Shown one piece after another: positions 6,504-47,618 of a stretch of DNA of 64,000 bases. The DNA is taken from contig JBMFWF010000001.1 in assembly GCA_049965555.1 (NCBI GenBank), positions 8,895 to 72,894 on the forward strand, in the 5' to 3' direction. The number at the start of each line of letters is the position of its first letter. Within the stretch, counting starts at the first letter, position 1. Below the pieces are notes generated by a model. The model was not told the origin of the DNA, did not search any database, and was given only the letters and a program-made list of their open reading frames with translations. Source of the stretch: Candidatus Parvarchaeum sp. Its GTDB lineage: Archaea; Nanobdellota; Nanobdellia; Parvarchaeales; Parvarchaeaceae. The position numbers and the translations under genes were made by a program.

Positions 6504-6980
6504 TTAGCTGCCTGTTCCTGCTATTGCACCCGTTGCAGAATATGTTGCAGTGCCTGCTGCAGTTGTAACCTGGTAAGTTAAGTTACCGCTCGCAGAGAAA
6601 CCTACTCCTGAGTTACATGTATCCTTGCTAAATGTAACAGTAAATGAGCTACCAGATGTTACCGTCGACGACGAAAAATCTGTTGAAGAGGTATTACTGT
6701 CTGCAGTAAAGCCAGAAAACGAACTCAAGGTCATTCCCGTTAACTTCGCTGAAGTCGCTCCGTTTGGTAAGCCTCCTGTTGTGAAGGCCACTGTTAAATT
6801 ACTGCTACCACATACTGCTGCACTTGCTGCAAATGGGCTGAACCCACTGCTACTTGCGGTTACGCTTGCTCTAGGGTTAAAAATACCCATAGAGTACAGG
6901 ATTACAGCTACGATGACTATGATTAAGATTGCCCAACCATAGGTCATCATGTACTCTAATGCTGACTGTCCTTTTGCCAT
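6504..6980 (-). CDS. Archaeal type IV pilin-like protein (class III signal peptide)
   Basis: MAKG|QSALEYMMTYGWAILIIVIVAVILYSMGIFNP leader and helix. S/T/G-rich beta-type C-terminal domain with two Cys. Confidence 0.75.
   Translation of the reverse strand: MAKGQSALEYMMTYGWAILIIVIVAVILYSMGIFNPRASVTASSSGFSPFAASAAVCGSSNLTVAFTTGGLPNGATSAKLTGMTLSSFSGFTADSNTSSTDFSSSTVTSGSSFTVTFSKDTCNSGVGFSASGNLTYQVTTAAGTATYSATGAIAGTGS
6880..6975. repeat. 96-nt segment matching 7407-7502 at 95 of 96 positions (pilin leader and helix coding)
   Basis: Direct alignment by eye. The single mismatch is C/T at 6953/7480. Confidence 0.9.
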
Positions 6981-7033
6981 ACAGATATAAAATTTTTAAC
7001 CTATTTAAATCTTTATTTTTTATCAAATTTTTA

Positions 7034-7516
7034 TCAAGAAGCTATACCCGATATCGTCCCGGTAGTATTATATGTTTGATTTCCTATAGAAGGAACATTT
7101 TCTGTGTAAGTTAAAATTGAAGTTAAAGAAAACGTTACTCCATTAAGTTTGCAAATTACTTCTGGTAAATCTATAAGTTTGCTTGAACCCCTTATAATAA
7201 TTATTTTATTTAAAGAGTAACTTCCGGAAGTTATATTAGTACTAACTGCTGAGGTAAAATAAATTTTATCAACAAAACCATATCCAACAGATCCTGGAAA
7301 AGATGCATGCAGCATAAAATAAAGACCAGTTGAGTTACATATTGCGGCAGAAACCGAGAAAGGAGCAAAGCCTGTTGATGTCGGAGTTATAGCTCCTCTT
7401 GGATTGAAAATACCCATAGAGTACAGGATTACAGCTACGATGACTATGATTAAGATTGCCCAACCATAGGTCATCATGTATTCTAATGCTGACTGTCCTT
7501 TTTTGCTTGATGCCAT
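7034..7516 (-). CDS. Archaeal type IV pilin-like protein, paralog of 6504-6980
   Basis: MASSKKG|QSALEYMMTYGWAILIIVIVAVILYSMGIFNP. The 32 aa of the helix are identical to the neighbour. The C-terminal domain diverges and has two Cys. Confidence 0.75.
   Translation of the reverse strand: MASSKKGQSALEYMMTYGWAILIIVIVAVILYSMGIFNPRGAITPTSTGFAPFSVSAAICNSTGLYFMLHASFPGSVGYGFVDKIYFTSAVSTNITSGSYSLNKIIIIRGSSKLIDLPEVICKLNGVTFSLTSILTYTENVPSIGNQTYNTTGTISGIAS
7407..7502. repeat. Second copy of the 96-nt pilin leader/helix repeat
   Basis: See 6880-6975. Confidence 0.9.
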
Positions 7517-7607
7517 CGTTTATACACAAATAATTTCAATTTTATATTATTTATATTTACTTATAATGAAACTTTATAAAGAAAGTCTTTAATTTTGGAG
7601 ATAAATC

Positions 7608-8261
7608 TTACCCGATTGAGAAAGGCAAGTCAACGTAGATTTTTGGATTGCTAACGCTTGTTGCCACATAATTGTAAATGCCTGCTGGCAAAGCAATTGA
7701 TTTTGTATTGGCAAAGTAAGTAAACGGTGAATTCTGCTGTGTTAAAGTAACTGTAGTTCCATTTGCATAATATAATGATAAATTGACTTTTCCTGTAAAT
7801 CCCCCTACAAATATATAATTCGGAAGATTGTCAGAATAATTGGCATACTCGTATGCAAGTGCTATATTAGTAGAATTTGTGTACAAAGCAAGGTTTGACA
7901 GGCCAAAAGACTCGTTTTCAGTCAGCATTGTATTTGCACCGCATGACGTCAAATCCTGCCCAGCCAACAGCTTCCCGCCGTCTAAAGAACTCTCATATAT
8001 TATTATGACCCCATTAGAAACGTTTATCGTATAATTCTGAAAGGCTGTGAATTGAAGCAACGGAAGATACTGGATGGTTTGCATGCCATTGGAAGTGGCA
8101 ATTGAGTTTATTGAATCCGCTATTTCATAACATATTCCGTTCATTTTGGAAACTGTCGGATTGCCAGCGGAGATGTGTGTAAAGAAGACTGCTATAAATG
8201 CTATTAAGATCAAAACAAACGCAACATCGACTACAAATTCGAAGGAGAATTGTCCTTTCAT
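7608..8261 (-). CDS. Prepilin-like surface protein (class III signal peptide)
   Basis: MKG|QFSFEFVVDVAFVLILIAFIAVFF leader. Many N-x-S/T sequons. Third gene of the pilin cluster. Confidence 0.6.
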   Translation of the reverse strand: MKGQFSFEFVVDVAFVLILIAFIAVFFTHISAGNPTVSKMNGICYEIADSINSIATSNGMQTIQYLPLLQFTAFQNYTINVSNGVIIIYESSLDGGKLLAGQDLTSCGANTMLTENESFGLSNLALYTNSTNIALAYEYANYSDNLPNYIFVGGFTGKVNLSLYYANGTTVTLTQQNSPFTYFANTKSIALPAGIYNYVATSVSNPKIYVDLPFSIG

Positions 8262-16319: not shown

Positions 16320-16757
16320 ATGAAAGGACAGGAATCCTTGGAGATGATAATAATATACAGTTTGGCTATAGCAGTAATAGGATCAATATTTTATATAATA
16401 TTCACGTTTTTCCCGAGTTTAACAGGCGCGACAACTCAACCCAGCTACTCTGGGTTTCCAGGATTCAGAATAATACAGCAGGGTTACATCTCATCAAAAT
16501 CCCTTTTCTACATAAAATTCCAGAACCTGCTGAATGAAAACGTTAAAATAGACGGTTTATCCATCTTAATTTCAGGTGTAAACTATACCAACTTTGTTTG
16601 CTCAAAAACTTATCTCCCCGCTTTGGAATACAGCGAATGCAATTTAACGTCTGTATCACTTGGCAGTTCATTCAGCGGAAACGGTTATATATATTATACT
16701 CCTACAAACATATCTTCCTCCCCGATCATAGTATCTATGGGGAACATAATCAATTAA
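16320..16757 (+). CDS. Prepilin-like protein (class III signal peptide)
   Basis: MKG|QESLEMIIIYSLAIAVIGSIFYIIF leader. N-x-S/T sequons. Confidence 0.6.
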   Translation: MKGQESLEMIIIYSLAIAVIGSIFYIIFTFFPSLTGATTQPSYSGFPGFRIIQQGYISSKSLFYIKFQNLLNENVKIDGLSILISGVNYTNFVCSKTYLPALEYSECNLTSVSLGSSFSGNGYIYYTPTNISSSPIIVSMGNIIN

Positions 16758-17326: not shown

Positions 17327-17836
17327 ATGGATGTTGAACAGTTTCTTTTCTTTGAAGTACTCATTGGCATAGTAATAGCGCTTACGATGTTTTTCCTTTT
17401 CTACAATAATTATTCATCTATTTTTCCAGTAGGTTGCGATTCAGCGACAGCTCTCCTGCAGAACCAATTTACAAGCGCAGAATACGGCTATGCTAACAGG
17501 ATGGAAGGCACCCCTTTGTTTAGATGCTATGATGAAAATGCTTGTTACAATGCAGCAACGGCTCAGCAAACGTGCATAAGGCATTGGTGTTACTATGATC
17601 TTTGGAAAAACGGGCAGGGGAGCGATTCTGCTGTACAAGCATGCATTGATAGCCCTCCTGCAAGTATAAACAAGTCATGCAGCGTTGTATCTCCTACAAA
17701 TACTGCAGATTTATTCAGCTGTTCAGAGAGCACTATAGTTGCTAATAACGCCACTGACATACAGAACTGCGCAATAAATGTCACAGCATGCATATCGGGG
17801 GACGGGCCTTACTGCCCTGCATGTGTAGCTCAATGA
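17327..17836 (+). CDS. Cysteine-rich extracellular protein with N-terminal hydrophobic helix
   Basis: MDVEQFLFFEVLIGIVIALTMFFLF anchor. 12 Cys in about 135 remaining residues. First gene of a coupled operon. Confidence 0.55.
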   Translation: MDVEQFLFFEVLIGIVIALTMFFLFYNNYSSIFPVGCDSATALLQNQFTSAEYGYANRMEGTPLFRCYDENACYNAATAQQTCIRHWCYYDLWKNGQGSDSAVQACIDSPPASINKSCSVVSPTNTADLFSCSESTIVANNATDIQNCAINVTACISGDGPYCPACVAQ

Positions 17837-17837
17837 T

Positions 17838-17999
17838 ATGGATAAAAAAGGAAGCGTAGAATGGCGTCTTATATGGATAATGCTGGTAATAATAACCGCT
17901 ATCGCGATTATAGGGCTTATTGTAATACTTTTTTACGCAGGATCGCACAGTAGCTCTCCCTTCTCATATTTCGGAAATCTCCTGGGAGGGGGGTCATAA
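17838..17999 (+). CDS. 53-aa mini-pilin-like single-helix protein (absent from the ORF track)
   Basis: Hand translation: MDKKG|SVEWRLIWIMLVIITAIAIIGLIVILFYAGSHSSSPFSYFGNLLGGGS. Starts 1 nt after the upstream stop. Its stop abuts the next ATG (TAAATG). Confidence 0.5.
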   Translation: MDKKGSVEWRLIWIMLVIITAIAIIGLIVILFYAGSHSSSPFSYFGNLLGGGS

Positions 18000-18890
18000 A
18001 TGGAAGAGGGCATTCTATTGACGATAGTTTTTGTTATATTTGTCATAATAGCAGGAATAATTCTTTCAGTCGTTTCCTTTTCTATAATAACCTCATTTGG
18101 CACACTAAACTTCGGATTAAGCTGCTTTACCGCATTTACCCAGTATAAGATAGTGAACAGCTTTTTAGCTCCATTTACAGGCATAACATCTTTCTTCGGC
18201 TTTTCAAATATAGTTATAAGCCCAACGCAATCTGCACAGGTGCAAAGAGACTGCTTGCAGACTGCGAATGTAAATGAAAAGAGCACTGCAAGTTTTGCAT
18301 CCTCGTTTTATACAGAAGCGTCGTCATGCTTTAGTTTATTTTCCGGAGGAAATGCAGTAATAGGTTCGCAGATTCTTTCTGCTAAAAACATAAACCAGAT
18401 ATTCAACTGTTACAAAGGATCATTGATTAGTCAAAGCAATGACGTAAATTATTCAGCAATAATAAGTTATATTGACAGCAATTATAACGGGAGCTATCCA
18501 CTGCAGATAGTTTTCATAACGAATGGAAGCAATGGCAATGCAACATACATAACTCCATCTGACAAGCTTTCAAATTCAAGCTATACAGTAACTTACTTTG
18601 GCTATCCTTCTGGAGGGATCAAAAACTGCCAGGTGAGCTTCAAAGACCAGTGTGAGTACACAGCCAGATTCCAGCAGCCAATAATAAACGACCTATCGGT
18701 ATGCGCTTATTCGAATGAGACTACGAATCAAAGCAGGGAGACAGTAAGCTCTCTTAGCGACGGCAACCCCTCTCTAAATATAATAAATGAGAATAGTGGC
18801 TGTGATTACTATGTGCCTTTATGTGGAAAGCTCAGCAACTATATGGTGTATAGTCAAAGCAGGGTATTTGTATGCATACCCGGCCAATGA
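18000..18890 (+). CDS. N-terminally anchored extracellular protein (Cys- and sequon-containing)
   Basis: MEEG|ILLTIVFVIFVIIAGIILSVV helix. 11 Cys. N-x-S/T sequons. Confidence 0.5.
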   Translation: MEEGILLTIVFVIFVIIAGIILSVVSFSIITSFGTLNFGLSCFTAFTQYKIVNSFLAPFTGITSFFGFSNIVISPTQSAQVQRDCLQTANVNEKSTASFASSFYTEASSCFSLFSGGNAVIGSQILSAKNINQIFNCYKGSLISQSNDVNYSAIISYIDSNYNGSYPLQIVFITNGSNGNATYITPSDKLSNSSYTVTYFGYPSGGIKNCQVSFKDQCEYTARFQQPIINDLSVCAYSNETTNQSRETVSSLSDGNPSLNIINENSGCDYYVPLCGKLSNYMVYSQSRVFVCIPGQ

Positions 18891-18949
18891 TATTTTGCCT
18901 CAAATATGAATTGGATATTAATTTATTGCATAAAAACACTACTTAATTA

Positions 18950-20425
18950 ATGGCAGAGACACCGGGAGAGAGCTTCATATTCATAGTTTTGGCGGTGATA
19001 TTTATAATAGTTATAGTAGCGATTGCCGGCTATCTTTTATTGGTTGGAGTAAACTTATCAAACAGCAGCATCTGCTACGTAAGCTCTGAATTCACCAACT
19101 TTTACTATAATGGTCTGTGTGTATCGAATTTCTTTTGCCTTAGCAGCACTCTTAAAGCCATAGGGATAGGGCCACCACTTTTCGGCTGCACGACATCAAC
19201 AGCGGGATACGGCCCGGGCTCGAAACCATCTCAGGTATTTTCAACAGTAGCAACTGACCTGACAAGCTGCTGGAACCAATATGGTGCAAACCAAGGACTT
19301 ACGGTTTTAACTAATTCGCCAGCAATCTGCTCCGTAGTAGATGTAAATATAAACCAGAACATAACGATAAATAACCTTACCAATTACCTTGGAAAAAACG
19401 CGTATACGACGGAGGTTAGCTGTCTTAACCACACGCCTGTTCAATCCTGCTCTGATCCCTTGACAAGCTCTAATCCTAATGGATACTCATGTGATTTAAA
19501 TGATCCTAGTTTGTGTGTTTCCCAATCATCTAATTATTTCAATTGCAAAAGTCAATCCGGTTACAACCCCTTTACACAAGGTTACACAACAAAATACATA
19601 CCTTTAAATGGATCAAAACCGCCAACTGCTGCGATGAACCTTTCAGGTTATCTCTGCGAAGAATCCCAGGGCTGTTCTTTTAACACGACACTAGGAACTT
19701 GTTCGACTCCGAATGGAACTACTTCTTCATGCACAGATTTGTACACTAACTTCTGCAATGGCAATAACTGCACTGTTGGCTATGATTCTATAACAGATTC
19801 TTATGAAGCTCCTTCTTCCTGTGTATTGACAGAACCAGTGAAAAGCACTTCAATAATAAATGAATCATATGCAGATTACTTAAAACCAGGAGATAATTTA
19901 ATATTCAGCTATAAAAATGTTAGTAACCCGAGCCAAAGCGGGTTTGTGCCTCCAAACAGCAGCAGATCAATAAACAAAGCGCAGATATATATAGTTTACC
20001 TAAATTCTTTGGTAGGGACAAGGTTTCCCCCAAGCTCAATAAGCTTGCCGAGCGAATGCGAGCCGGCAACATTCCTTAACAATTATCCAACAGCTGGAAT
20101 AGAATATGAATGCTCAAGAGCAATTGCATCAGGAGTAGGTGCAAAGGTTCTTTCGCCTTCAAACCCTGGACTAATAGCTGGAGCTGCACTTGCGGGATTT
20201 GGAGCTTCGGAATGTTTTAATAACACAATATGCAAAGATGACATCGCACCGAATGTGCTTACTTACACAGGAAAACTTGCTTATTCGGCCTTGTATGCTA
20301 CTGGATTGGAGCAATGTGCACAGTCTTTGTTCTACTTCTTTGCTTCCTTGCCGCAAGAAATAGGCATATCAAAGCCAAACTTTTTAGGGAGGAATTTAAT
20401 TTACATATGCGCAGTAACGAAGTAA
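18950..20425 (+). CDS. Large cysteine-rich extracellular protein with N-terminal hydrophobic helix
   Basis: MAETPG|ESFIFIVLAVIFIIVIVAIAGYLLLV. About 30 Cys spread over 491 aa. Many sequons. Confidence 0.55.
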   Translation: MAETPGESFIFIVLAVIFIIVIVAIAGYLLLVGVNLSNSSICYVSSEFTNFYYNGLCVSNFFCLSSTLKAIGIGPPLFGCTTSTAGYGPGSKPSQVFSTVATDLTSCWNQYGANQGLTVLTNSPAICSVVDVNINQNITINNLTNYLGKNAYTTEVSCLNHTPVQSCSDPLTSSNPNGYSCDLNDPSLCVSQSSNYFNCKSQSGYNPFTQGYTTKYIPLNGSKPPTAAMNLSGYLCEESQGCSFNTTLGTCSTPNGTTSSCTDLYTNFCNGNNCTVGYDSITDSYEAPSSCVLTEPVKSTSIINESYADYLKPGDNLIFSYKNVSNPSQSGFVPPNSSRSINKAQIYIVYLNSLVGTRFPPSSISLPSECEPATFLNNYPTAGIEYECSRAIASGVGAKVLSPSNPGLIAGAALAGFGASECFNNTICKDDIAPNVLTYTGKLAYSALYATGLEQCAQSLFYFFASLPQEIGISKPNFLGRNLIYICAVTK

Positions 20426-20874
20426 AGGGCGCAAGTGCAGTGGAGTATTTCATAGTTGTTATACTTCTTATTGCATTTTTAGTCATAGGGGTTGTGATAG
20501 CCAGTTCAGTCTTCCATTTTGCTATATTCCCATCAGGTGTAATAACAAGCGGAAGCGGCTCTCCTGTAGCATGCTCCGTAAATGTTACTAACATAAGCAC
20601 TCCGTCAAAACAGAACACATTCAAGATAACAGTATCGGAAGGCAGCCCTGGATTAATTTACAAAGTTTTCGCAAGCAATACTGCTAAAAGTGCATCCCTT
20701 TCAATAATAGGAAATTACACTGCGGGGATAAGCTCCTTTTCGACAGATTTAACCATTGCAAACCCTAGCATAAACACAGTTATCATAGGTAACACATCAG
20801 GCAGCAATGTTTCAATAGATGGTATCAAGTACTCTCCGGGCGGAACGTGTGAAACTGAGATATTCGGCAGTTAG
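20407..20874 (+). CDS. Archaeal pilin-like protein (class III signal peptide)
   Basis: Start taken at the internal ATG: MRSNEVKG|ASAVEYFIVVILLIAFLVIGVVIA. S/T/N-rich beta-type domain bracketed by two Cys. Overlaps the upstream gene by 19 nt. Confidence 0.65.
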   Translation: MRSNEVKGASAVEYFIVVILLIAFLVIGVVIASSVFHFAIFPSGVITSGSGSPVACSVNVTNISTPSKQNTFKITVSEGSPGLIYKVFASNTAKSASLSIIGNYTAGISSFSTDLTIANPSINTVIIGNTSGSNVSIDGIKYSPGGTCETEIFGS

Positions 20875-22397
20875 ATGAAAGGATGGAGTGTGCCATCCTG
20901 CTTTATTGTATCCGGGTTATCTTTTATGTTTTTTATTATCTTCTTCATGCTCTTCTCCCTTCTTTTTGAAAGCCAATAGTAGCCCTCGTCATTTGTCCCT
21001 CTTGTAATAAGTATGAATATCCTGCCTGCAGAGAACCTGCCGACTCTGCCTCTGCGCTGTATGTTTCTTATTGCACTAGGTATGGTCTCATAAAATACCG
21101 CAAGATCAACCCCTTTTATGGACATTCCCTCTTCGCTGACACTTGTTGAAACAAGCACATTGTACATGCCTGATTCAAAATCTCGTATTATGTTCACTTG
21201 CTCCTTCTGTGATAAACCTCCCTTTCCCTGGCCGATGAACCTTATAGGCCTTACCCCCGGTATCTTTGATATGCTGTTGTATATGACATCTACAGTGTCC
21301 CTGTATTGTGCAAACACTATCGCCTTTTTTGACTCATTAAAGTTGTTTGTAAATATAATTTGAAGCTGCTTGAGCTTTGGATGCTCAATCCCTTTCTCCA
21401 ATAATTCTACAGTTCTTTCCTTTATTTCAATGAACTTCTTGTTTGAAGAAAGGTCCTTATCTGTCTTTGCTTTCCCATTTTTTATTTTCTCCAAAAAATT
21501 TGAAAACGCTAAAAGGCTCTGTGTCGACAAAAGATTGTAAGCGTGATATAGCTTCAAAATCTTTGAAGTCAGGATTATCCCTCTGATAAGATAATACGTC
21601 CTTTTTCCGCTGAACATCTGCTTTTGAAGGCTCTTCTGAAGCATAAGGATGGTTACTTTGTTTATCCTTGCTTTCTGGACGTTTTTAAGAAGGCCGATTT
21701 CCTGCAGCTCATTTATTGATTCGCTTATGAGCAGCTTTAGGCTGTTGGCAAGTTCAAGCATCTCCTGTGGAAGATCAACCTTTATCTCTTCTATGTATTT
21801 TTTCTGTATGTACGGTACGACGTCAGGATCGTCCTCTGATCTTATTTCAACATTGCTTATCTGCAGATTGCTGCATATTGTCTTTATCTTTTCCCTTTCG
21901 GACGCAGGAGAAGCTGTAAGCCCAAGGATTAGAGGATGAAAAGACTGCTCTGAGTATGTTTTTGCTATCTTGACATATGAGTAATTACCGATTGTATGAT
22001 GCGCCTCATCTACTATAAGCAGGCTAAAATTCGAGAAGTCTATGATATTTTTGGACATGTCATTCTCTATTGTCTGAGGGGTAGCAAATATGAGCTGGGA
22101 TTCCTCATAGATTTTGCTCCTTTTGCTGCTTGATATGGAGCCGCTGGCTATGCCTTGACTTACTGCAAGCAATGAAGAAAATGTCTTATAATGCTGGTTT
22201 GCAAGAGGCTTTGTGGGCGCCAGGAAAAGAACCTTTGAAGAAGGATATTTCTCCAGCCTATAATCAACAAGCATCGCACTTATTATAGTTTTTCCAAGGC
22301 CTGTTGGCAGTACTACAAGGGTGTTGCCCGTTTTTGCAGTCTCAAATATCCTGTTCTGGTATTCTCTGTTTTCTATTTTTTCCTTAAAAAGTGTCAT
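20871..22397 (-). CDS. hef: Hef/FANCM-family SF2 helicase (helicase part only)
   Basis: REYQ..VVLPTGLGKT (motif I), LLIVDEAHH (motif II), TASP, QRRGRVGR (motif VI). 508 aa with no ERCC4 nuclease region. Confidence 0.7.
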   Translation of the reverse strand: MTLFKEKIENREYQNRIFETAKTGNTLVVLPTGLGKTIISAMLVDYRLEKYPSSKVLFLAPTKPLANQHYKTFSSLLAVSQGIASGSISSSKRSKIYEESQLIFATPQTIENDMSKNIIDFSNFSLLIVDEAHHTIGNYSYVKIAKTYSEQSFHPLILGLTASPASEREKIKTICSNLQISNVEIRSEDDPDVVPYIQKKYIEEIKVDLPQEMLELANSLKLLISESINELQEIGLLKNVQKARINKVTILMLQKSLQKQMFSGKRTYYLIRGIILTSKILKLYHAYNLLSTQSLLAFSNFLEKIKNGKAKTDKDLSSNKKFIEIKERTVELLEKGIEHPKLKQLQIIFTNNFNESKKAIVFAQYRDTVDVIYNSISKIPGVRPIRFIGQGKGGLSQKEQVNIIRDFESGMYNVLVSTSVSEEGMSIKGVDLAVFYETIPSAIRNIQRRGRVGRFSAGRIFILITRGTNDEGYYWLSKRREKSMKKIIKNIKDNPDTIKQDGTLHPFI

Positions 22398-22973
22398 TTA
22401 CACACTCTCAGCTTTTCCGCTCTTTATAAGTATCTGCGCTACATCTTTGTCTATTTCAATTACATTTGGAAAACTGAAAGGCCCGTAAGATTTGTCGTTT
22501 CTCCAAACGAATTTTGGTATGTCTGACAATATCTTTATGACTACCTTCTCGCTTTCGCTATCGTTGCTCTCCACTTTCTGCAGCTTCTTTGGCTCTATTG
22601 ACTTTACTTCAGTTATTACTCCTGATTTATACTGCTTGGAGAGATTAAGAAGGTTGTCAAAAAATATTATCTCCTTGGAAAGCATGTTCGCCTTTGCCTG
22701 CTCGCTGTCGGCATCAAGTATGGCCATTGATGCGATTTTAAGCATCCTCAGGTTTATTATCTGCTCCAGCGTTGAGATTGCGTTCTTTATCTGTGTTGAT
22801 ATCTCCTCCAACTTCTTTTCATCATTCATTTTCTTTGCCTCTTCTAATGAGTTTTTGTTTATGGCTATGTATTCCTTCATCTCTTCAAGGAGCTCATCAT
22901 TGAACTTTGTCAGAGTCCGATTATCTTCCTGCTCCTGCCTCCTTATTCTTAAAAATTCACTGTAAGTAATCAT
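22398..22973 (-). CDS. GINS subunit (Gins51-like)
   Basis: Size (191 aa), helical N-terminal domain (YSEFLRIRRQE...LTKFNDELLEEMKEYI) and small C-terminal domain (GPFSFPNVIEIDKDVAQILIKSGKAE) fit archaeal Gins51. Stop-to-start adjacent to hef. Confidence 0.5.
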   Translation of the reverse strand: MITYSEFLRIRRQEQEDNRTLTKFNDELLEEMKEYIAINKNSLEEAKKMNDEKKLEEISTQIKNAISTLEQIINLRMLKIASMAILDADSEQAKANMLSKEIIFFDNLLNLSKQYKSGVITEVKSIEPKKLQKVESNDSESEKVVIKILSDIPKFVWRNDKSYGPFSFPNVIEIDKDVAQILIKSGKAESV

Positions 22974-23005
22974 AATCCCTAATAGCTTCCGAAAGTATAA
23001 AAATG

Positions 23006-23167
23006 TTAATATGCATTCTTAAAGCCTGCCATTATTGAAGAGCTTATTCCAGAAAAAAACCCGGAAATATCTTTAGACAGCGCAGACGGGCCTACTAAAA
23101 ACAAATAGACTAAAAGGAGCGTTATTCCCAAGATGACGGCTATGACATAAAACCAGACGGATTCCAT
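23006..23167 (-). CDS. 53-aa single-TM protein (small ORF D, absent from the ORF track)
   Basis: Hand translation: MESVWFYVIAVILGITLLLVYLFLVGPSALSKDISGFFSGISSSIMAGFKNAY. The ATG is 1 nt after the stop of ORF C. Confidence 0.4.
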   Translation of the reverse strand: MESVWFYVIAVILGITLLLVYLFLVGPSALSKDISGFFSGISSSIMAGFKNAY

Positions 23168-23168
23168 G

Positions 23169-23309
23169 CTATATGTTTGGAACTGTCGGTATGAGTTTAT
23201 GTATTGTGGCTGGCGAGAACAAGAAGAGGTAGAACACTATCAATAGTATGAGAACTATCAGCGTTATTATTATAAGCAGTATATAGCTTTCTACCCCTTT
23301 ATTATTCAT
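23169..23309 (-). CDS. 46-aa mini-pilin-like protein (small ORF C, absent from the ORF track)
   Basis: MNNKG|VESYILLIIITLIVLILLIVFYLFLFSPATIHKLIPTVPNI. The start overlaps the end of ORF B by 8 nt. Confidence 0.45.
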   Translation of the reverse strand: MNNKGVESYILLIIITLIVLILLIVFYLFLFSPATIHKLIPTVPNI

Positions 23310-23472
23310 AACCGCTCACATTTAGACTATTTGACTTCGATATAAATACTTTAAAGAGATTCGTAAATTTGTACGGCGTAAAAAGCTCTAAAAATATAAC
23401 TATAAGCAGTATCCCGATTATTATCAAAATTATGTACAGAAAAACCCCGCTTACAACACCTTTGTCATTCAT
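23302..23472 (-). CDS. 56-aa mini-pilin-like protein (small ORF B, absent from the ORF track)
   Basis: MNDKG|VVSGVFLYIILIIIGILLIVIFLELFTPYKFTNLFKVFISKSNSLNVSGYE. ATGA start/stop overlap with ORF A. Confidence 0.45.
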   Translation of the reverse strand: MNDKGVVSGVFLYIILIIIGILLIVIFLELFTPYKFTNLFKVFISKSNSLNVSGYE

Positions 23473-23642
23473 ATGCCCTTGCCGTAAAGCCAGCTAAATG
23501 AGAAAACGCTCGTCATATCCTTTGCGATCGTTGAACCGGCTCCTGTAAATATTAAACCTATTATTATACCTGCAAACAAAACTATAATTGCCAGTATTAT
23601 AGCAATTATCTCGGTTATAGGCATCTGTCCTTTGTTGTTCAT
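23469..23642 (-). CDS. 57-aa mini-pilin-like protein (small ORF A, absent from the ORF track)
   Basis: MNNKG|QMPITEIIAIILAIIVLFAGIIIGLIFTGAGSTIAKDMTSVFSFSWLYGKGI. The ATG is 2 nt after the stop of the 575-aa gene. Confidence 0.5.
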   Translation of the reverse strand: MNNKGQMPITEIIAIILAIIVLFAGIIIGLIFTGAGSTIAKDMTSVFSFSWLYGKGI

Positions 23643-23644
23643 AA

Positions 23645-25372
23645 TCAATTCACCGAAAAAGGAGGCTTCCAGTTCAAAAGGCCAACTCTCTTCTTTAACT
23701 CATCATATATATATGCGGCATCTTTATCGGCAATAAACAAACCAAGCTCAAGTGCTCTTTTAATATCGGATTGTGTAAAACGCTTTGAATTGACAAGCAT
23801 TTCATATATCTCTGCCTGCTCTGCAGAAAAACTTGCCTTGTGTTTTTCGGCAGAGGATATTGTAGAAAATGACTTTGAAATGCCTGAAAAGTCGTCCTTA
23901 AATGCCCTATAAATGTCCATAAAAGCGTATTCCTTCTGAGGCTTCTTCTCTTTTTTCTTCTTTTCTTCTTCATCAGCTTCCTTAACGTATTTGTCAATAT
24001 CGGCCTGTATAACGCTGAGAGAACGAAAAATTGCCTGATCGACGGCCGCAAACACAGTTTTCTGTATATTTGCGATGTGCGCCTTCTTATAAAGGTAGTA
24101 CTCTTCTGGTGTAAAGCAGTATGGAAACATGTTGAAGTATATCGTTCCTTCATAAGGAGGCTGAAGAGCTTCCTTGCTTGGCTTTTCCTTAAAGTCCATC
24201 TTCAATTTTATTGCCATTATTACAAGCGGCCCGTATTTTTTTATCCTGTCATAAATGAATGATCTTTTATTCTCTTCATATCCTCTTGAAATTAGGTTGC
24301 TGGCTATGCTTTTAGGCTCTGCCTTTATTGGTATTTCTGGGCCCTTGTTTTTAAACAGCCTAACGTACTCTGCATCGTACTCTTTTGCATATATCGGCTT
24401 GCTTCCGACAGCAGTTACAGAAAAACTTTCATTCTCGAATATATCTGGCTTGCTTGCGCCCTCTACGTATCTTTCTGCATTTTTAGATGTTTTAAAGCCC
24501 ATCTTCGCAAGGAGCGAAAGATAAGTTGAGCACCAATCGACATATAAGTTGAATGAGCCCATCTGGCTCTTAAGATATTGCAGAAGCATGCTTTTCCTGT
24601 TTCTAAGGTCATTACCATTTATTTCTTTCCATTTTTCATACTCAATGTACCTATTTTTCAGTATATTTTTATACTGCTCATTTCTATCGATATTCTGCAC
24701 ATCTTTCAAACTTTTAACCTGGTAAAAAACCGACATTATATCTATAAATCCTGGCCCCCCCTGACTTTGAGTTGGAGACCTGGAAAGCGCAGAAAGACTT
24801 GCTCCGCCCTTTCTTGAATCAACATTGTCCAAAAACACCCTTTTTAATGCGAGTTCCGCTGCCTCTGCTTTTTCTTTGTCCGTATCCTTTAATTCATCAT
24901 ATAAGTATAGGTTCCTTTCAAGCTCCTTAAGTTCGTAGATTATAGCTATAATAGATTTAAGAACAGTGTTTATATTCCCAAGAAGCTGCATTACTCTGTC
25001 TTCCAAGTTCTTCCTTTTCTCAAAAACCATGTTCATTAAACTAGACAAGGAAGAAGGATCAACCGATTCTGCAGTTCTTATGGATCTATAACCCAATGCT
25101 CCAAACATCTGCATAACAGAGTAGTACTCAGGCTGAAAATGGTATCTTTTGTATATATCCTTTGTGAACTTATAGCCTTCCGGGTTGCCAACAAACCCTG
25201 GGTTTGGTATTTCTTCCCCGGAGGCGTACCTGAAATCAATCTCGCCCCTGTAGTGAGAATCGCTGCTGGAAGCCCTTGCTTCTAATTCGCTTATCCATTT
25301 TTGTATGTAGTTAACATCTGTTTTTGGGTCATTGAACTTCTTTGCTATCTCGCTTATCTCCCGTATGTTCAT
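23645..25372 (-). CDS. Orphan 575-aa soluble, coiled-coil-rich protein of unknown function
   Basis: Long uninterrupted ORF with no TM segment, no P-loop and no motif I recognise. Has an internal K/E-rich linker (EADEEEKKKKEKKPQKE). First gene of an operon with the small ORFs A-D. Confidence 0.6.
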   Translation of the reverse strand: MNIREISEIAKKFNDPKTDVNYIQKWISELEARASSSDSHYRGEIDFRYASGEEIPNPGFVGNPEGYKFTKDIYKRYHFQPEYYSVMQMFGALGYRSIRTAESVDPSSLSSLMNMVFEKRKNLEDRVMQLLGNINTVLKSIIAIIYELKELERNLYLYDELKDTDKEKAEAAELALKRVFLDNVDSRKGGASLSALSRSPTQSQGGPGFIDIMSVFYQVKSLKDVQNIDRNEQYKNILKNRYIEYEKWKEINGNDLRNRKSMLLQYLKSQMGSFNLYVDWCSTYLSLLAKMGFKTSKNAERYVEGASKPDIFENESFSVTAVGSKPIYAKEYDAEYVRLFKNKGPEIPIKAEPKSIASNLISRGYEENKRSFIYDRIKKYGPLVIMAIKLKMDFKEKPSKEALQPPYEGTIYFNMFPYCFTPEEYYLYKKAHIANIQKTVFAAVDQAIFRSLSVIQADIDKYVKEADEEEKKKKEKKPQKEYAFMDIYRAFKDDFSGISKSFSTISSAEKHKASFSAEQAEIYEMLVNSKRFTQSDIKRALELGLFIADKDAAYIYDELKKRVGLLNWKPPFSVN

Positions 25373-29024: not shown

Positions 29025-30731
29025 TTAAGAAACACTGCCAAAAGAAACCGATGGCATAACTCCGTTTGGAGGAGCTGATGGTGAGTAATACGTAACAGGA
29101 TTATTGCTCCACAAAGCTGTATAAGCGCCCCCTCCATCTTCATAGTAATCTAGCTCTAGTCTTACTGAGCCAACAGTAGAGATAGTTCCTGAGTAAGTAG
29201 TGAAACCTTGAGTATGCCAAGCAGAAATTACATTATCTGGAACTGTCGTGCCACCTAGCCAATAAGCACCATTAGAGCTAGAAGCGGAAGTAGAATAACT
29301 TAGAGCAATACCATCGTCAGTTCCTTCGTAGAAGGTTGTAGAGGAATTAATTATTGCCCAGCCTATTGCTTTTATAATCCAGCTATAGTCATTTTCACTT
29401 ACTCCTGCAGAATCTGGATTAGAAATAGGAGGATTTGGATATGGAGCTCCACCTGAATAACCATATTGATAGTTCATAACTACATAATTCTCTGTAGTGC
29501 CATCAACGTTTTGAGAAGTTCCTTCTGCTGGAGTGTAGAAGGGATTTGTTGAAGAAGTAAAGGTTGCACAAGATTGAATGCTTACACCATTATTCAAAGT
29601 AGCAGCGTATACATTGTTTTGGTACCCATTAGAATCGCAAGTTGAGGTTGGATAAACGTAAATTTGGTATTCTAATCCTGGATTCATTACACTAGCTATA
29701 TCATTATATTCATAATAAGTAGGACTTAGCTGAGGCGCCTCCCCTGTGTTTACTGTGTTTAAAACATTACTGCTTTCTGGGAAAAAATCCATATAAACAG
29801 TTGTGGATGTAAAACTGCCTAATTTAAGCCAATATGCAACTATCTGTGTGCTTGATGTGCCATTTTCCCTCCAACTTGGGATTACTGTCCCATTAGGGTA
29901 TAAAAATTCTATATTTTGGAGATTCGAAGCCGCATAAGAGCTGTAATCATTCATGTTTACTGTAACTTCTTGTTGAAATGGATTTGAAGTAGCAGAAGAA
30001 GATGTTATAGTTAGTGGGACATAAGCTACTGGTTGCTGAGAAGAAACGCATTGAGATGCATAATCCCCTGAGTTTGAGGGAGTAACCTCGATAACGTACT
30101 CTGAATGGTAAGCAGAAGCTACAACGCTTCCAGAAGCCGTACTTGGTGATGACGAAGAAGTTGAGCTAATTGAACTTCCAAGGTAAACTCCATTCGTTGA
30201 AAAAACGCTGATATTAAATGTAACTGGAGAATTCGTAGGCAGAAATGAAGAATTATAAAATTCTAAATTGTATGATATTGTGGTACCCGAAGCTGTATAT
30301 GATTGAGAAATATAAGAAATAGCGAATCTCAAACCTAAAATAGCACTGCCGTTAACTGTCTTTACAAATGCATCAAAAGTTCCTCCCGACAAAGGCAGCA
30401 TTCCTGATACATTTTCTGCTGGTTTTGACACGCCCAGTTCAGTAGTAGTTTGTAACTTTATTATATTTCCACAAAAGAAAGAGTATTGTGGTTCAAGCAA
30501 AGGCACAGTAATCGGAAAAGTCTGCATTGATCCTGGGCCCTGGGAAGCCACATAATTAACTTCATTTGCAAGGTTGTTTGCAGCGGTGGTTATCTGGCTG
30601 GCGGAAGAGCTTAAAGCAAATGAACCGTAAAAAAGCATTACATATACTACAAATGCAGCAATAATGCTTATGCCAATACCTATTACTATTACATATTCTG
30701 CTGAGTACTGGCCTTTTTTAAGATACGACAT
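29025..30731 (-). CDS. Prepilin-signal surface protein with a DUF2341-like middle region and a PA14-like C-terminal domain (putative adhesin)
   Basis: MSYLKKG|QYSAEYVIVIGIGISIIAAFVVYV leader. Middle region NIEFLYPNGTVIPSWRENG..AYWLKLG..TVYMDF. C-terminal ..FYEGTDDGIALSY...VRLELDYYEDGGGAYTALWS matches the PA14 pattern. Confidence 0.6.
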   Translation of the reverse strand: MSYLKKGQYSAEYVIVIGIGISIIAAFVVYVMLFYGSFALSSSASQITTAANNLANEVNYVASQGPGSMQTFPITVPLLEPQYSFFCGNIIKLQTTTELGVSKPAENVSGMLPLSGGTFDAFVKTVNGSAILGLRFAISYISQSYTASGTTISYNLEFYNSSFLPTNSPVTFNISVFSTNGVYLGSSISSTSSSSPSTASGSVVASAYHSEYVIEVTPSNSGDYASQCVSSQQPVAYVPLTITSSSATSNPFQQEVTVNMNDYSSYAASNLQNIEFLYPNGTVIPSWRENGTSSTQIVAYWLKLGSFTSTTVYMDFFPESSNVLNTVNTGEAPQLSPTYYEYNDIASVMNPGLEYQIYVYPTSTCDSNGYQNNVYAATLNNGVSIQSCATFTSSTNPFYTPAEGTSQNVDGTTENYVVMNYQYGYSGGAPYPNPPISNPDSAGVSENDYSWIIKAIGWAIINSSTTFYEGTDDGIALSYSTSASSSNGAYWLGGTTVPDNVISAWHTQGFTTYSGTISTVGSVRLELDYYEDGGGAYTALWSNNPVTYYSPSAPPNGVMPSVSFGSVS

Positions 30732-43062: not shown

Positions 43063-43995
43063 TCAAGAATTAGCCTGAGATATCTTCTCCTTTATCTTGT
43101 CTATAACATTCTGCACGTTTTCCTGGCCCCCGAGAGAAGCAAGTGCAGTCGTTGAAAGGCCAGCCATGCCCCCAAGCATGCTTCCTGCGTTTTGCATGAA
43201 CTGCATAGGAAGAACTATCTTGGAAGAGCTTGATTCCCCTATCTGTTTAAGTGCCTGAAGATAAAGATACATAATTGAGCGGTCATCAAGAGATTTGCTG
43301 CCTTCCCCTATTGCTTCCATGACTATTTTCTGTGCCTCTGCTTTAAACCTCTGTGCCTGCAACAAATTGGCAGCAATCTCTGGCTGCTGCATAGCCTGTA
43401 TAACTTCATTGGACGGCGAAACAGACCTTAATTGCACAGAGGGGACGTCTATCCCCCATTTCCAAGTCATGTGCCTTATTGCGTCTGCAAGTATATCATT
43501 TAATCTGTCAAGGCTTCCAAAAACCTGCCTCATTGTTAATGACGCTATTGCATTCCTAACCGCGGACTGAACTAAATTGGATAGTCCTTGCCCGTAATTA
43601 TCTATCTGCAAAGTTGCTTTCTCGGGATCTACAATCTGATAATATATTGTACCATCAAGCGAGATCTTTAGGTCATCGGCTGTAAATATGTCAGAAGAAG
43701 TTATATCCATCATTTTTACCCTTACATCTACCTTCTTGTATTCCTCTTCAAAAAATGGCACAACAATAGCCCACCCGGGACCCGCTATGCGATTAAACTT
43801 GCCAAGTCTGAATATTATCCCTCTTTCAAACTGGCTGTATTTCTTTACAAAAGTTATAAAGAAGATAACAATAAGCAATGCAATGAAGATTATTAGGAAT
43901 GCATAAAACAAACTGGGCACAAAGATACTTAAGAGAAAAAGAGCAACCAAAGCTATTATCCCTATAACGAAAACCCAAAATTCCCCTGGACTCAT
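43063..43995 (-). CDS. SPFH/band-7 (stomatin/prohibitin-like) membrane protein
   Basis: N-terminal TM region, then YSQFERGIIFRLGKFNRIAGPGWAIVVPFFE and a downstream SPFH core. Confidence 0.8.
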   Translation of the reverse strand: MSPGEFWVFVIGIIALVALFLLSIFVPSLFYAFLIIFIALLIVIFFITFVKKYSQFERGIIFRLGKFNRIAGPGWAIVVPFFEEEYKKVDVRVKMMDITSSDIFTADDLKISLDGTIYYQIVDPEKATLQIDNYGQGLSNLVQSAVRNAIASLTMRQVFGSLDRLNDILADAIRHMTWKWGIDVPSVQLRSVSPSNEVIQAMQQPEIAANLLQAQRFKAEAQKIVMEAIGEGSKSLDDRSIMYLYLQALKQIGESSSSKIVLPMQFMQNAGSMLGGMAGLSTTALASLGGQENVQNVIDKIKEKISQANS

Positions 43996-44851: not shown

Positions 44852-46219
44852 TCATGCAAATATTATGCCGATGAACAAAGCCAAGGTAAGTATTATTAGT
44901 ATGGATTCCTTTATCCTCTGCTCTTTTTTGATAGGCATTTGTTTTTTATTGCTTATTATCCTGTCAACAACATGCATTTCTGACAGTATGCTGAAGTAAT
45001 AAAAAGTAGAAACCAAAAGCGCGAAAAATGCAAGTATGACAAGCGCGAAGTATCCGCTGCTGAATAAAGCATAGAATATTAGAAGCTTTCCAAAGAACCC
45101 TATAGTAGGAGGGAAACCTGCAAGAGATAGTATACCTATGAAGAAAGCTACTGCCCCTACTCTTGAGACCTGTGTCATCGAACTGACTTCCTTCTTGTAA
45201 ATGACTTTTCTGTTCTCAAACATATCATATGCTAGAAACACTATTGCATCTGCGACAGCGAATGCAAAAATGTAGAAAATTGCTGCGTTTATCCCTTTTG
45301 TAGTAAGAACTGCTATGCTTATGAATGCAAACCCTGCCTGTGAAATACTTGAATAAGCAAGTATCCTCTTTATTCTATCCTGAACGGATGCAAGGAATGA
45401 GCTCAGAAATATAGTTATAATGGCTATCGAAAGGAAAAGCGCAGTAACAAACAATGATGAAACTGGAAGAGCGAAAAAGAAAATCCTTATCATTGCAATT
45501 AGTCCTGCGGCCTTGGATACGGATGAGATAAAGGCAGTTACAGAGCTTTTTGAAGCTTCATACGTGTCAGGCGCCCACATATGAAATGGAACAAGGGTTG
45601 ACTTGAAGCCCAGCCCAGCTATTACTACAGCGACGCCCGCAATGAAAGGAAGGTATGAAATCATATGCAAAGAAGAAAATGAGAGTGTGCCTGCACCTGC
45701 ATATATAAGGGAAATACCGAATATCAAGATTACCATAGAGATTATGCCGGTTGAAAGATATTTTAACGCGCCTTCGAGTGCATTTCCCGATTTATACATG
45801 TAAACTAGAGCATAAGTAGATATGGAAAGCATTTCTATAGAGATAAACAACGAGATAAGATTGCTTGATAAAACAACAAGGGTTGAACCAAGAACTGCAG
45901 AAAGGTATGATATATCGATTGCAACGCTGTGTTCATTTTTATCTGCTATTATGAAAAGGTATATGAAAAATGAGAGAAACAGCATGAACCCCGTCACAAA
46001 CTGGGAATACTGCACTTCAGAGAACAAATTTATGTTCATGTTTCCATATATGACATCAAAAATGAGCGCTAGGCCCAGGAAAGCGGCTGTTATGTAGTGC
46101 AAAAAGGCCTTTTTGCTGCTATTTAAACTATGCCTTAGAAAATCTAATAAGATAATAAGCAATATGCCGGAAAACAAGATGTATTGTGAATTTAGGTATT
46201 CCATTTTATAGCCCTCCAA
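44852..46219 (-). CDS. nuoN: NADH-quinone oxidoreductase subunit N
   Basis: About 14-TM antiporter-like protein, last in the J-K-L-M-N order. The alternative start MEYLN is at 46204. Confidence 0.7.
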   Translation of the reverse strand: MEGYKMEYLNSQYILFSGILLIILLDFLRHSLNSSKKAFLHYITAAFLGLALIFDVIYGNMNINLFSEVQYSQFVTGFMLFLSFFIYLFIIADKNEHSVAIDISYLSAVLGSTLVVLSSNLISLFISIEMLSISTYALVYMYKSGNALEGALKYLSTGIISMVILIFGISLIYAGAGTLSFSSLHMISYLPFIAGVAVVIAGLGFKSTLVPFHMWAPDTYEASKSSVTAFISSVSKAAGLIAMIRIFFFALPVSSLFVTALFLSIAIITIFLSSFLASVQDRIKRILAYSSISQAGFAFISIAVLTTKGINAAIFYIFAFAVADAIVFLAYDMFENRKVIYKKEVSSMTQVSRVGAVAFFIGILSLAGFPPTIGFFGKLLIFYALFSSGYFALVILAFFALLVSTFYYFSILSEMHVVDRIISNKKQMPIKKEQRIKESILIILTLALFIGIIFA

Positions 46220-47618
46220 GTGTACTTAAAAGCAATGAAGGGAATAGCCCTATCAAAAGAATGAAAAAAGAAAGGAAGAGCATGAAAAACAGCTCGTTTC
46301 TTGAAAGGTCTGTCAAGCCTGCAAAGGTCTTCTTCAACTGTCCAAATAAAGACTGCTTTATTACCCTCAGATAATAATTCGTAGACAGCATTATTCCGAA
46401 TATTGCTAAAAGCGATATACCGACAACCCCATAAGACCCTAAGAAAATGAGAAATTCTCCGGGAAAATTAGATAAACCCGGTACACCAAGACTTGCAAAT
46501 ATGCCAAAAACAAGAAAGAAGGAAAGCAGGGGCATCTTTGACATTAACCCCCCCATTCTTTCTGTCTCATTAGTGCCTGTCTTTTGCATAAGTATGTAAG
46601 AGATTCCAAACAGCATAGTTATTATGAATCCATGGCTTACCATTAAAAGAACCGATCCTGCGACTGCTAAATTTATGCCCGATGAAACACCAATAAAGAC
46701 CAAAGACATATAGAACATGCTCGAATACGAGAGAAGCTTTTTCAGATCTTTCTGGCCTGAAGCAGTAAATGCAATATAGATTGCAGTGAAAACGCCCAAA
46801 CCTATCAAAGGCAGCCTAAAGTCAAAAATCAAATTCCTGAAAAGTCCAAAGCCAAACAAAATAAACGCAAAACCTCCGAGTTTGGAAAGCATGCTAGACA
46901 AAAGCATTGTTCCTGAAGAAGGAGAATAATAATAAGAATCAAGAAGCCAGCCGTGAAGTGGGAAGATAGGCATCTTTATCATTACTGTTATTAATAAAAG
47001 GAAAAAGGACAGGTATTCTATGTAAGATGGCAAAAATGACATCCGGGATGCAATAACAAAAAAGTTGAAACTACCAGTGTAAAGGAAAAGAAGTATGAAG
47101 ACGGCTAATAATGTAAGGCTCCCAAATTGTGTGAACACCAGGAATTTCATCGCCGCTTTTCTGCCATTCTCACCGTTGCCCCATAGCCCGGTAATGAAGA
47201 AAAGTGAAAGAACTGCTGCTTCCCAGAAGATGAAGAACACTATCAAATTGGAAGAAACAAAAACAGATATAACAGAGATATACACTAGAAGATAAAAGAG
47301 ATAAAAGATGCTTTTGCTCTGCTTTATTTCCTTTGATGAAAAAAGAAGTATTGCGATAGGGATTGTTACTGCTATTAGAAGAAACGGTATGGTTATGAAA
47401 TTTTCCTGCAGTGAAAATGAAAAACTTATGCTGGGATTTATGTTTACATTGAAACTTGAAAAGCCAAAGATAAGGCCAACGACAAATACTACAGCATTAA
47501 CTAACATTGTCGAAAGAACTATTGTCTCGGATGAAGGCAGATTCCGGTAGAATCTTTTTAGTATGAGAAGCAATATACCTATTGCCGGCACCAAAAGAAG
47601 AAAAATTAAGTTTATCAT
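46206..47618 (-). CDS. nuoM: NADH-quinone oxidoreductase subunit M
   Basis: Antiporter-like multi-TM protein (..PLHGWLLDSY..) between the L-like and N-like genes. Confidence 0.7.
   Translation of the reverse strand: MINLIFLLLVPAIGILLLILKRFYRNLPSSETIVLSTMLVNAVVFVVGLIFGFSSFNVNINPSISFSFSLQENFITIPFLLIAVTIPIAILLFSSKEIKQSKSIFYLFYLLVYISVISVFVSSNLIVFFIFWEAAVLSLFFITGLWGNGENGRKAAMKFLVFTQFGSLTLLAVFILLFLYTGSFNFFVIASRMSFLPSYIEYLSFFLLLITVMIKMPIFPLHGWLLDSYYYSPSSGTMLLSSMLSKLGGFAFILFGFGLFRNLIFDFRLPLIGLGVFTAIYIAFTASGQKDLKKLLSYSSMFYMSLVFIGVSSGINLAVAGSVLLMVSHGFIITMLFGISYILMQKTGTNETERMGGLMSKMPLLSFFLVFGIFASLGVPGLSNFPGEFLIFLGSYGVVGISLLAIFGIMLSTNYYLRVIKQSLFGQLKKTFAGLTDLSRNELFFMLFLSFFILLIGLFPSLLLSTLGGL

Follow-up and report, generated by a model that had tools for sequence, protein, structure and literature searches.

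The 64,000-nucleotide stretch of Candidatus Parvarchaeum sp. contig JBMFWF010000001.1 analyzed here (the window) carries on its minus strand a gene for a soluble 575-residue protein (P575), followed without appreciable gaps by four small open reading frames (ORFs A to D), each encoding a protein built around one hydrophobic helix. We propose that these four mini proteins and a similar fifth one (m53) represent headless type IV pilin-like subunits of a split pilus-gene cluster, and that P575 is an independent neighbor belonging to a family found throughout the DPANN archaea, a combined reading to which we give about an even chance. All functional statements made here are drawn from sequence comparison alone. 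An earlier note on this DNA had suspected a filament system of a new type; the comparisons point to no categorically new system, and the peptides and the large protein most likely do not form one machine. The closest relatives of the window proteins are annotated as Candidatus Parvarchaeota or Parvarchaeum, and the source is a Parvarchaeales (ARMAN-type DPANN) archaeon.

The four small ORFs had been read by hand behind the P575 gene, and their lengths and junctions reproduce from the DNA. The junction between P575 and ORF A reads TGA-tt-ATG (a 2-nt spacer), ORFs A and B share an ATGA overlap, ORFs B and C overlap by 8 nt and ORFs C and D are separated by 1 nt, while a TTG start would extend ORF A to 59 residues. 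As also described, the string runs on with short gaps, measured at 32 nt to the GINS51 gene and 0 nt from there to hef. Loci around homologues of the large protein were collected from 80 species-level genomes and several contigs, and 16 marker proteins of the window were mapped onto them. Some 20 distinct Parvarchaeales-type genomes (species-level) have orthologues of ORFs A to D in this same order, and thereby the large gene followed by MNxKG mini-ORFs, which the earlier note proposed to seek in related genomes, does recur. Order, length and family motifs hold down to 44% identity of the neighboring large protein, and the overlap geometry of starts and stops is kept in the relatives. The ratio of nonsynonymous to synonymous substitution rates (dN/dS, mean pairwise value for nine closer genomes, with synonymous sites near saturation in the small-ORF comparison) is 0.045 for ORF A, 0.097 for B, 0.087 for C, 0.073 for D and 0.081 for m53, against 0.053 for the 575-residue protein gene, 0.033 for GINS and 0.05 for ribosomal proteins; between ORF A and its L008 orthologue there are 19 synonymous changes and a single nonsynonymous one. 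The dN/dS check recommended in the note thus indicates strong constraint. Public annotations of metagenome-assembled genomes (MAGs) already call the small ORFs under the NCBI label 'hypothetical protein' (ORF A is MCL4362814.1), and they were hidden, as the note had put it, only to its first-stage ORF track. Because orthologues are ordered, dN/dS is low and public gene calls exist, ORFs A to D are, by these comparisons, real genes encoding proteins under purifying selection at the level of housekeeping genes.

Each of the small ORFs encodes a single strongly hydrophobic stretch (maximum Kyte-Doolittle 19-residue mean of 2.9–3.5), and in the window A, B, C and m53 begin with a 5-residue leader followed by this helix (3.3–3.5 on the same scale). 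Across the families the leaders are polar and 3–8 residues long. The residue before the helix (position -1) is Gly or Ala in all orthologues of A, B, C, D and m53 that carry a leader, and position -2 is Lys or Arg in nearly all A, C and m53 sequences. This invariant -1 residue strengthens the proposal made in the note that A to C have the layout of a class III (prepilin-type) signal and are headless subunits of Flp size. A pattern of the FlaFind type would not be wholly satisfied by A to C, a point to which no weight is given here. Cleavage after it would leave predicted mature proteins of 52 (A), 51 (B), 41 (C) and 48 (m53) residues, compared with 53 for ORF D, and the segments beyond the helix in A to D amount to 15–25 residues. 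An acidic residue lies near the predicted mature end, as an invariant Glu at +6 in A and as Glu or Asp at +2 or +3 in C, D, m53 and part of B, with none at +5.

The families are further distinguished by their tails. With the predicted cleavage site marked by an arrow, the signature of ORF A is (K/R)(G/A)↓(Q/E)MP(I/V)(T/S)E ... SF(S/N)WL(F/Y)G, with P8, E11, S48, F49, W51, L52 and G54 invariant in 15 orthologues; that of B is ...G↓... LE(L/F/I)FTPYK; that of C is ...G↓V.(E/D)(Y/F) ... FYL..(F/Y)(S/A)P ... (I/L)P..P; and D carries ...(V/A/I)GP... and a Gly/Ser/Phe-rich tail. The ORF B orthologues at L010 (11891-12070) and L011 (9208-9378) have leaders without a basic residue (MNESG and MTDNG), in which the Gly is kept. 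B, C and D align with the helix-ending Pro in one common column, and hhalign pairs B with C at 97% (41 columns), B with D at 93% and A with D at 92%, scores that are inflated by transmembrane (TM) composition. The profile-profile comparison supports paralogy of the mini families which, judged by their sequences, are new families of a known kind outside PF04021 and PF04964.

ORF D provides the most informative comparison within this set, made here between the window gene and its orthologues (including those at L019, L021, L023, L025-L028 and L089). In 13 of 20 genomes, the window among them, ORF D is leaderless and begins ME(S/A/E)(V/I)W(F/Y)Y..., whereas in the remaining 7, which branch more deeply, it is leadered and reads ...(K/R)G↓(V/I/M)(T/S)E(A/T)(T/L)I(F/Y)Y.... 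The start of the leaderless form falls about one residue past the predicted cleavage site, and there appears to have been a single loss of the leader, in the clade of the window. This pattern would be expected of a leader that serves as a removable class III signal and does not determine topology as part of the mature protein. ORF D had been listed as a fourth TM peptide; a TM peptide it is, but not of a separate kind, the KKG or KRG leader of the deeper lineages placing it with A to C. The pair of leadered and leaderless forms amounts to a natural experiment on the need for leader cleavage in such subunits.

The mini genes lie in pilin-rich surroundings. Within 7 kb of A to D are m53 and the larger genes p145, p155, p169, p296 and p491 (Table 1), and a motif scan of the window finds many class III-type genes, the window as a whole holding at least 13 pilin-like genes. 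The AlphaFold2 (AF2) model of p155 consists of a 29-residue N-terminal helix (residues 11-39) and an Ig/FN3-like β-sandwich, at a predicted local distance difference test score (pLDDT) of 78. A helix joined to an Ig-like sandwich is the general build of archaeal pilins. A Foldseek search with the p155 model returned only generic FN3/Ig matches, at E 6e-3 or worse, and no solved archaeal pilin; the modeled architecture is compatible with a pilin and is not diagnostic. The p169, p296 and p491 proteins each have one N-terminal TM helix and Cys-rich extracellular parts with many N-x-S/T sequons. Their N-termini are short and acidic, not basic (MDVEQF.., MEEG.. and MAETPGE..), and are kept in orthologues (MAETAGE, MAETGGE), which are present in all Parvarchaeales loci. 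The whole arrangement is conserved across the order, a region of about 12 kb being collinear, housekeeping genes included.

The closest known case is provided by the Epd pilins of Methanococcus maripaludis (MMP1685, MMP0528, MMP0903 and MMP1283; DUF361/PF04021; arCOG06620). The major pilin of M. maripaludis, MMP1685, has 62 residues when processed and three further pilin-like proteins bring the range to 54–63 overall, while the pilin genes occupy several separate loci with the ATPase and platform genes elsewhere again (PMC3875500). The Epd-specific pilin lacks a globular domain, like the pilins of bacterial Tad pili, which are thought to derive from archaeal Epd-like systems, and type IV filament 'system 1' occurs in DPANN (bioRxiv 10.64898/2026.04.22.720090). 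The mini proteins share with the Epd pilins the very small headless subunit (54–63 residues versus the predicted 41–53 here), the leader of few residues ending in Gly, a Gln at +1 with a nearby Glu (Gln or Glu at +1 and the invariant Glu at +6 in ORF A), the presence of several paralogues per genome, and pilin genes scattered away from those for ATPase and platform. The claim that this locus has no match among known archaeal filament loci is thus not upheld, given that scattered minimal pilins of 54–63 residues are documented for Epd and that m53 and five larger pilin-like genes lie within 7 kb. The mini proteins differ from the Epd pilins in giving no PF04021 match (QxSxExxxL motif), in being about 10 residues shorter, in having Glu at +6 or at +2/+3 and not at +5, in having Gln at +1 only in ORF A, in the leaderless paralogue D of most genomes, and in that their surroundings show no dedicated EppA-like peptidase gene. 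Bacterial Flp/Tad pilins (PF04964) resemble them in mature size (about 40–55 residues) and all-helix headless design, but possess their own Flp motif, a CpaA/TadV peptidase and an adjacent tad operon, whereas here there is no PF04964 match and there are no tad-like genes nearby. The core minor pilins and pseudopilins (FimU-PilVWX, GspHIJK) are sets of four that prime type IV filaments and bear globular domains forming a tip complex. ORFs A to D are like them in being four consecutive coupled genes of distinct sequence and unlike them in having no globular domains. What sets the locus apart is the size of its subunits, about 10 residues under that of the Methanococcus pilins, the leaderless D, and the non-basic leaders of some B proteins and of the Cys-rich neighbors.

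[quoted passage not shown] An ATPase and platform of the type IV pilus (T4P) kind, also encoded elsewhere, would extract the peptides and polymerize them into a thin headless filament. Alternatively the peptides may be priming 'minor' subunits of a filament in which p155 and the Cys-rich proteins are present as adhesins. In either role they would act together with p145, p155, p169, p296 and p491, encoded just beyond GINS-hef, and ORF D would be a paralogue that is already 'mature' and enters the same pathway uncleaved.

Several observations weigh against this assignment of the mini proteins. Any N-in signal-anchor protein likewise has a TM helix behind a short basic N-terminus, and we know of no precedent for a leaderless pilin. 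In ORF B position -2 can be Ser, Asn, Gln or His (MNESG, MTDNG, MEKQG, MDKHG). When 32 mini proteins of the five families were scanned with Pfam and NCBIfam no match to a pilin model was obtained (PF04021, PF07790, PF04964 and TIGR-type models), only scattered TM-type noise being returned, and neither the window proteins nor 32 orthologues matched the PF04021 profile at E up to 1. Finally, Pfam identifies no T4P ATPase, platform protein or prepilin peptidase (A24) among the larger ORFs scanned in the window, nor did markers and ORF inspection reveal T4P machinery in the flanks of about 10 kb around the relatives. Remotely encoded machinery would not be unusual, because the ATPase and platform genes of M. 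maripaludis also lie away from its pilin genes; flaHIJ and pilin genes have been reported for a Parvarchaeales/Jingweiarchaeales MAG set (PMC10134863).

These same points would be accommodated if A to D and m53 were peptides that span the membrane once (N-in) and stay unprocessed, serving for instance as organizers or small accessory subunits of a membrane complex, with MNxKG just reflecting the positive-inside rule. The lack of pilin-model matches and of assembly machinery nearby would follow directly, the -2 Lys or Arg need not always be kept in B, and the short tails with their family-specific motifs could be interaction sites. However, the positive-inside rule requires neither Gly nor Ala, and over about 20 genomes one of the two stands invariantly before the helix in all five paralogous families. 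An acidic residue is also conserved close to the predicted mature end, and if the leader were a topology signal the leadered and leaderless forms of D would have opposite charge bias. Furthermore, canonical class III pilin-like genes, p155 (G↓ASAVEY) among them, lie in the same cluster, and pilins of 54–63 residues have a precedent in Methanococcus (PMC3875500). We consider unprocessed peptides possible though unlikely, and the foremost of the alternatives to headless pilin-like subunits.

Turning to P575, the protein is no orphan as first supposed. A word-indexed search yielded 86 relatives, at least 229 genomes encode one when each GTDB species is represented by a single genome, and a full hidden Markov model search of 1.84 billion representatives collected 852 clusters at 50% identity (E ≤1e-3). 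Family members are 480–600 residues long and come from Parvarchaeales, Pacearchaeales and Woesearchaeales (GTDB 'Nanoarchaeota'); in these searches the family is confined to DPANN, apart from one locus (L047) labeled Paceibacterota, probably a binning label. Across Parvarchaeales-type loci, identity to the window protein ranges from 44 to 94%. Sequence scans bear out the description of P575 as a protein with a K/E linker and without TM segment, P-loop or recognized motif: a Walker A motif is absent, and even the most hydrophobic stretch (maximum Kyte-Doolittle 19-residue mean 1.56) falls short of TM grade. P575 and 75 family members gave no match to Pfam, NCBIfam, PADLOC, PHROGs or PDB sequences; a PilN match of one family member (E 0.008) is regarded as chance.

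The AF2 model of P575 (from a 75-sequence alignment) is fairly confident (pLDDT 78, predicted TM-score 0.69) and comprises an N-terminal β-α-β unit, very long helices (residues 111-161, 166-191 and 232-290), a sheet built of long strands (315-420), a further region of helices, the K/E linker, which is disordered, and a pair of helices at the C-terminus. Foldseek produced no convincing fold for it, the best matches having E 0.04 and TM-score ≤0.2 in the PDB and E 5e-4 and TM-score 0.2 in BFVD. Long-helix matches to Tc toxins, TolC and STAT in the PDB and to phage internal head and maturation proteins in BFVD (TM-score ≤0.24) were dismissed. The structure search that had been recommended thus leads to no characterized family, in keeping with the original description, but the model adds β-domains to the helices that the description had emphasized. 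Nor does P575 qualify as a FlaH/KaiC-like, PilM-like or FlaI accessory protein by P-loop, profile or fold.

The genomic company kept by this family points away from pili. In Parvarchaeales an MNT-like nucleotidyltransferase gene is always divergently adjacent to P575. In at least 38 of 58 Pacearchaeales and Woesearchaeales loci the large gene is followed by genes for a K/E-rich protein of about 160 residues, a TIM-barrel-like protein of about 600 residues with a faint AP_endonuc_2 match, and a nucleotidyltransferase of the same family (examples are L002 7515-11066 and L004 7691-10866). This nucleotidyltransferase, a paralogue of the window protein, lies 3–4.5 kb downstream on the same strand at no fewer than 33 of the 58 loci. 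Outside Parvarchaeales the four genes thus appear to form a conserved module, and at none of the 58 distant loci is the large gene followed by mini ORFs. P575 would act with the nucleotidyltransferase in a separate cytoplasmic process common to DPANN. One of the four top DPANN-specific unknowns named by Makarova, Wolf and Koonin (2019) is 'MNT fused to HEPN ... in house-keeping context' (NEQ050). The P575 family, like the DPANN-specific family cls.004340 (NEQ484-like), is DPANN-restricted, largely helical, without a known domain and in housekeeping context. The pairing of P575 with the nucleotidyltransferase fits the published descriptions of NEQ484 and NEQ050 and offers a lead, the comparison being one of descriptions; a second profile search aimed at Nanoarchaeum equitans NEQ484 returned the same 83 proteins. 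The family is large, has already been noticed in DPANN and is uncharacterized.

Two further observations concern its members. On the ARMAN-5 scaffold GG745550.1 (L015 11574-11602) the match to the 575-residue homologue is in two overlapping pieces near the 3' end, which may be due to a frameshift or sequencing error. In about 20 of the 58 Pacearchaeales and Woesearchaeales loci (L031-L086) a class III pilin of about 150 residues, starting M..K(R/K)G↓(L/V/I)S(D/Q)V(V/I)TT(V/I)L..., is encoded 2–6 kb upstream of the homologue on the opposite strand; because housekeeping genes intervene, this proximity is probably synteny and not shared function.

The arrangement of the genes speaks against the independence of P575. 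The spacer between the P575 gene and ORF A is 1–9 nt in 18 of 19 compared genomes with adjacent genes (the exception being ARMAN-5 L015 with 81 nt), identity of P575 spanning 44–94%, and the GGTGA Shine-Dalgarno-like motif before ORF A is kept in most close relatives. The spacer between ORF D and GINS measures 31–77 nt among relatives, and most of these spacers contain a box comparable to that of the window (GTTTATATTT, ACTTATATTC, GGTTAATATC), located about 22–28 nt before the GINS ATG. GINS-hef thus probably has its own promoter, the position of the box suggesting a leaderless transcript, and a TATA-like box kept at this point marks the end of a unit in which P575 and ORFs A to D resemble a discrete operon. 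At L021 and L028, moreover, P575 and A to D remain intact and together after a rearrangement that leaves GINS-hef and the large pilin cluster elsewhere. Co-transcription and translational coupling of A to D with the large gene are likely in this genome.

These features might mean that P575 and the four peptides are one module, in which P575 acts as a cytoplasmic chaperone, a targeting factor or a base or regulatory component and is translated in fixed stoichiometry with the headless pilins from one mRNA. The nearest precedent for such a pairing of a soluble protein with pilins, an idea raised in the earlier note, is arCOG07564, an intracellular coiled-coil protein with a presumed regulatory role that is encoded in the pilus locus of one halobacterial T4P subsystem (Makarova, Koonin and Albers 2016, PMC4858521). 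P575 differs from it in having β-domains as well, and the phyletic spread of P575 does not follow pilin genes; neither sequence nor structure comparison links P575 to any T4P accessory protein. Adjacency of P575 and ORF A is weak evidence because the whole 12-kb region, housekeeping genes included, is collinear. In one of the few rearrangements observed, that of the lineage of L001 and L023, the block from ORF A to hef is inverted, with the breakpoint exactly between the P575 gene and ORF A, so that the order on a single strand becomes p296-p491-p155-A-B-C-D-GINS-hef, A to D come to lie behind the large pilin genes, and the P575 gene stands by itself, convergent with hef. The P575 family is also far wider than the peptides and elsewhere accompanies the TIM-barrel-like and nucleotidyltransferase genes, whereas family A occurs at only three loci in a metagenome contig collection, all Parvarchaeales-type and with the same synteny. 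The idea of one machine made of the large protein and the peptides is not supported, given their separation by this inversion and the lack of mini ORFs behind the large gene beyond Parvarchaeales. From these comparisons we regard a direct functional link between P575 and the peptides as unlikely, and the single module with its chaperone or base as doubtful. Improbable is the most specific version, that the string from P575 to ORF D is a Parvarchaeales-specific minimal filament operon with P575 recruited as its dedicated chaperone or base and ORF D needing no prepilin peptidase; were it true, no type IV pilin-like subunit produced directly in 'mature' form would have been known before ORF D. 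With P575 as an independent neighbor, by comparison, its sharing of a compact, translationally coupled mRNA with A to D in Parvarchaeales would mainly reflect gene packing in a reduced genome.

That the small ORFs arose by chance in A/T-rich spacer DNA and code for nothing, to which their shortness and hydrophobicity and the presence of similar-length antisense ORFs over some of them might lend credence, has next to no probability in view of dN/dS values of 0.05–0.10 and the conservation of order, length, motifs and start/stop geometry. This reading was dropped along with those of toxin-like peptides and of small Sec or OST subunits, on the grounds of purifying selection, the five paralogues with Gly or Ala ending the leader, and the restriction to one order.

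Parvarchaeales (ARMAN) and other DPANN have ultrasmall cells that need physical contact with a host, and pili are suspected contact organelles. If A to D and m53 are headless pilin-like subunits, the five newly defined and constrained families and their large Cys-rich partners are candidates for the contact or filament apparatus of an uncultivated lineage. The P575 family, with its modeled but unmatched fold and constant nucleotidyltransferase partner, merits study in its own right, the evidence not tying it to pili.

Table 1. Features of the window bearing on the P575 string and its surroundings (arrows mark predicted cleavage sites; roles are predicted from sequence)
Feature	Coordinates	Strand	Description
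P575, 575 aa	23645-25372	minus	ORF; first gene of the string; soluble α/β protein of a DPANN-wide family
ORF A, 57 aa	23469-23642	minus	MNNKG↓QMPITE...; hydrophobic helix, C-terminal SFSWL(F/Y)G; mini pilin-like
ORF B, 56 aa	23302-23472	minus	MNDKG↓VVSG...; helix ends in LE(L/F/I)FTPYK; mini pilin-like
ORF C, 46 aa	23169-23309	minus	MNNKG↓VESY...; helix ends FYL..(F/Y)(S/A)P, Pro-rich tail; mini pilin-like
ORF D, 53 aa	23006-23167	minus	MESVWFYV...; B/C-like architecture, without leader in the clade of the window
m53, 53 aa	17838-17999	plus	Fifth mini gene, about 5 kb from A to D; MDKKG↓SVEWR...; SPF.(Y/F)F tail conserved
GGTGA motif	23650-23654	minus	Putative Shine-Dalgarno-like motif inside the P575 3' end, 7 nt before the ORF A ATG
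TGTATATAA, ATTATTTAAATTAA	25391-25416	minus	A/T-rich TATA-like elements 20-40 nt upstream of the P575 start; candidate promoter of the string
TTTTTATAC	22995-23003	minus	TATA-like box in the D-GINS spacer (22974-23005), about 26 nt before the GINS ATG; candidate GINS-hef promoter
GINS51 homologue	22398-22973	minus	Housekeeping context; Pfam Gins51_C, E 4e-9
Hef-type helicase	20871-22397	minus	Housekeeping context; Pfam ResIII, DEAD, Helicase_C
Nucleotidyltransferase-like protein, 361 aa	25523-26608	plus	Divergent from P575; weak Polbeta and MntA matches
p155	20407-20874	plus	Class III-type, MRSNEVKG↓ASAVEYFIVV...; convergent with hef
p169, (m53), p296, p491	17327-20425	plus	Tightly packed; putative large pilin-like or adhesin subunits; no Pfam matches
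p145	16320-16757	plus	Class III-type, pilin-like, MKG↓QESLEMIIIY...; ribosomal protein L15e between p145 and the cluster

Further pilin-like genes occur at other sites. At L021 (12788-16753, minus strand), and similarly at L028, the genes past ORF D differ from those of the window and a convergent cluster is found instead, encoding a 124-residue class III pilin, two unknown proteins, a KaiC-like protein, a fusion of KaiC-like and small-GTPase domains and a Roadblock/LC7 protein, which from its composition may be a pilus-regulating module. Within the window, a second cluster of three pilin genes (6504-8261, minus strand) encodes paralogues of 158 and 160 residues starting M..KG↓QSALEYMMTYGW and a protein of 217 residues starting MKG↓QFSFEF, with no Pfam match for any of the three. 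A 568-residue protein with a class III-like start, MSYLKKG↓QYSAEYVIV, and no Pfam match is encoded at 29025-30731 (minus strand) and adjoins a TFB gene. The housekeeping context includes genes for an SPFH/Band 7 protein (43063-43995), a coiled-coil protein with a weak CdvA-like match (50233-51117), SMC (55483-58806) and Cdc48 (61900-63990), and, judged from gene size only, probably an A-type ATP synthase operon at 44852-50200.

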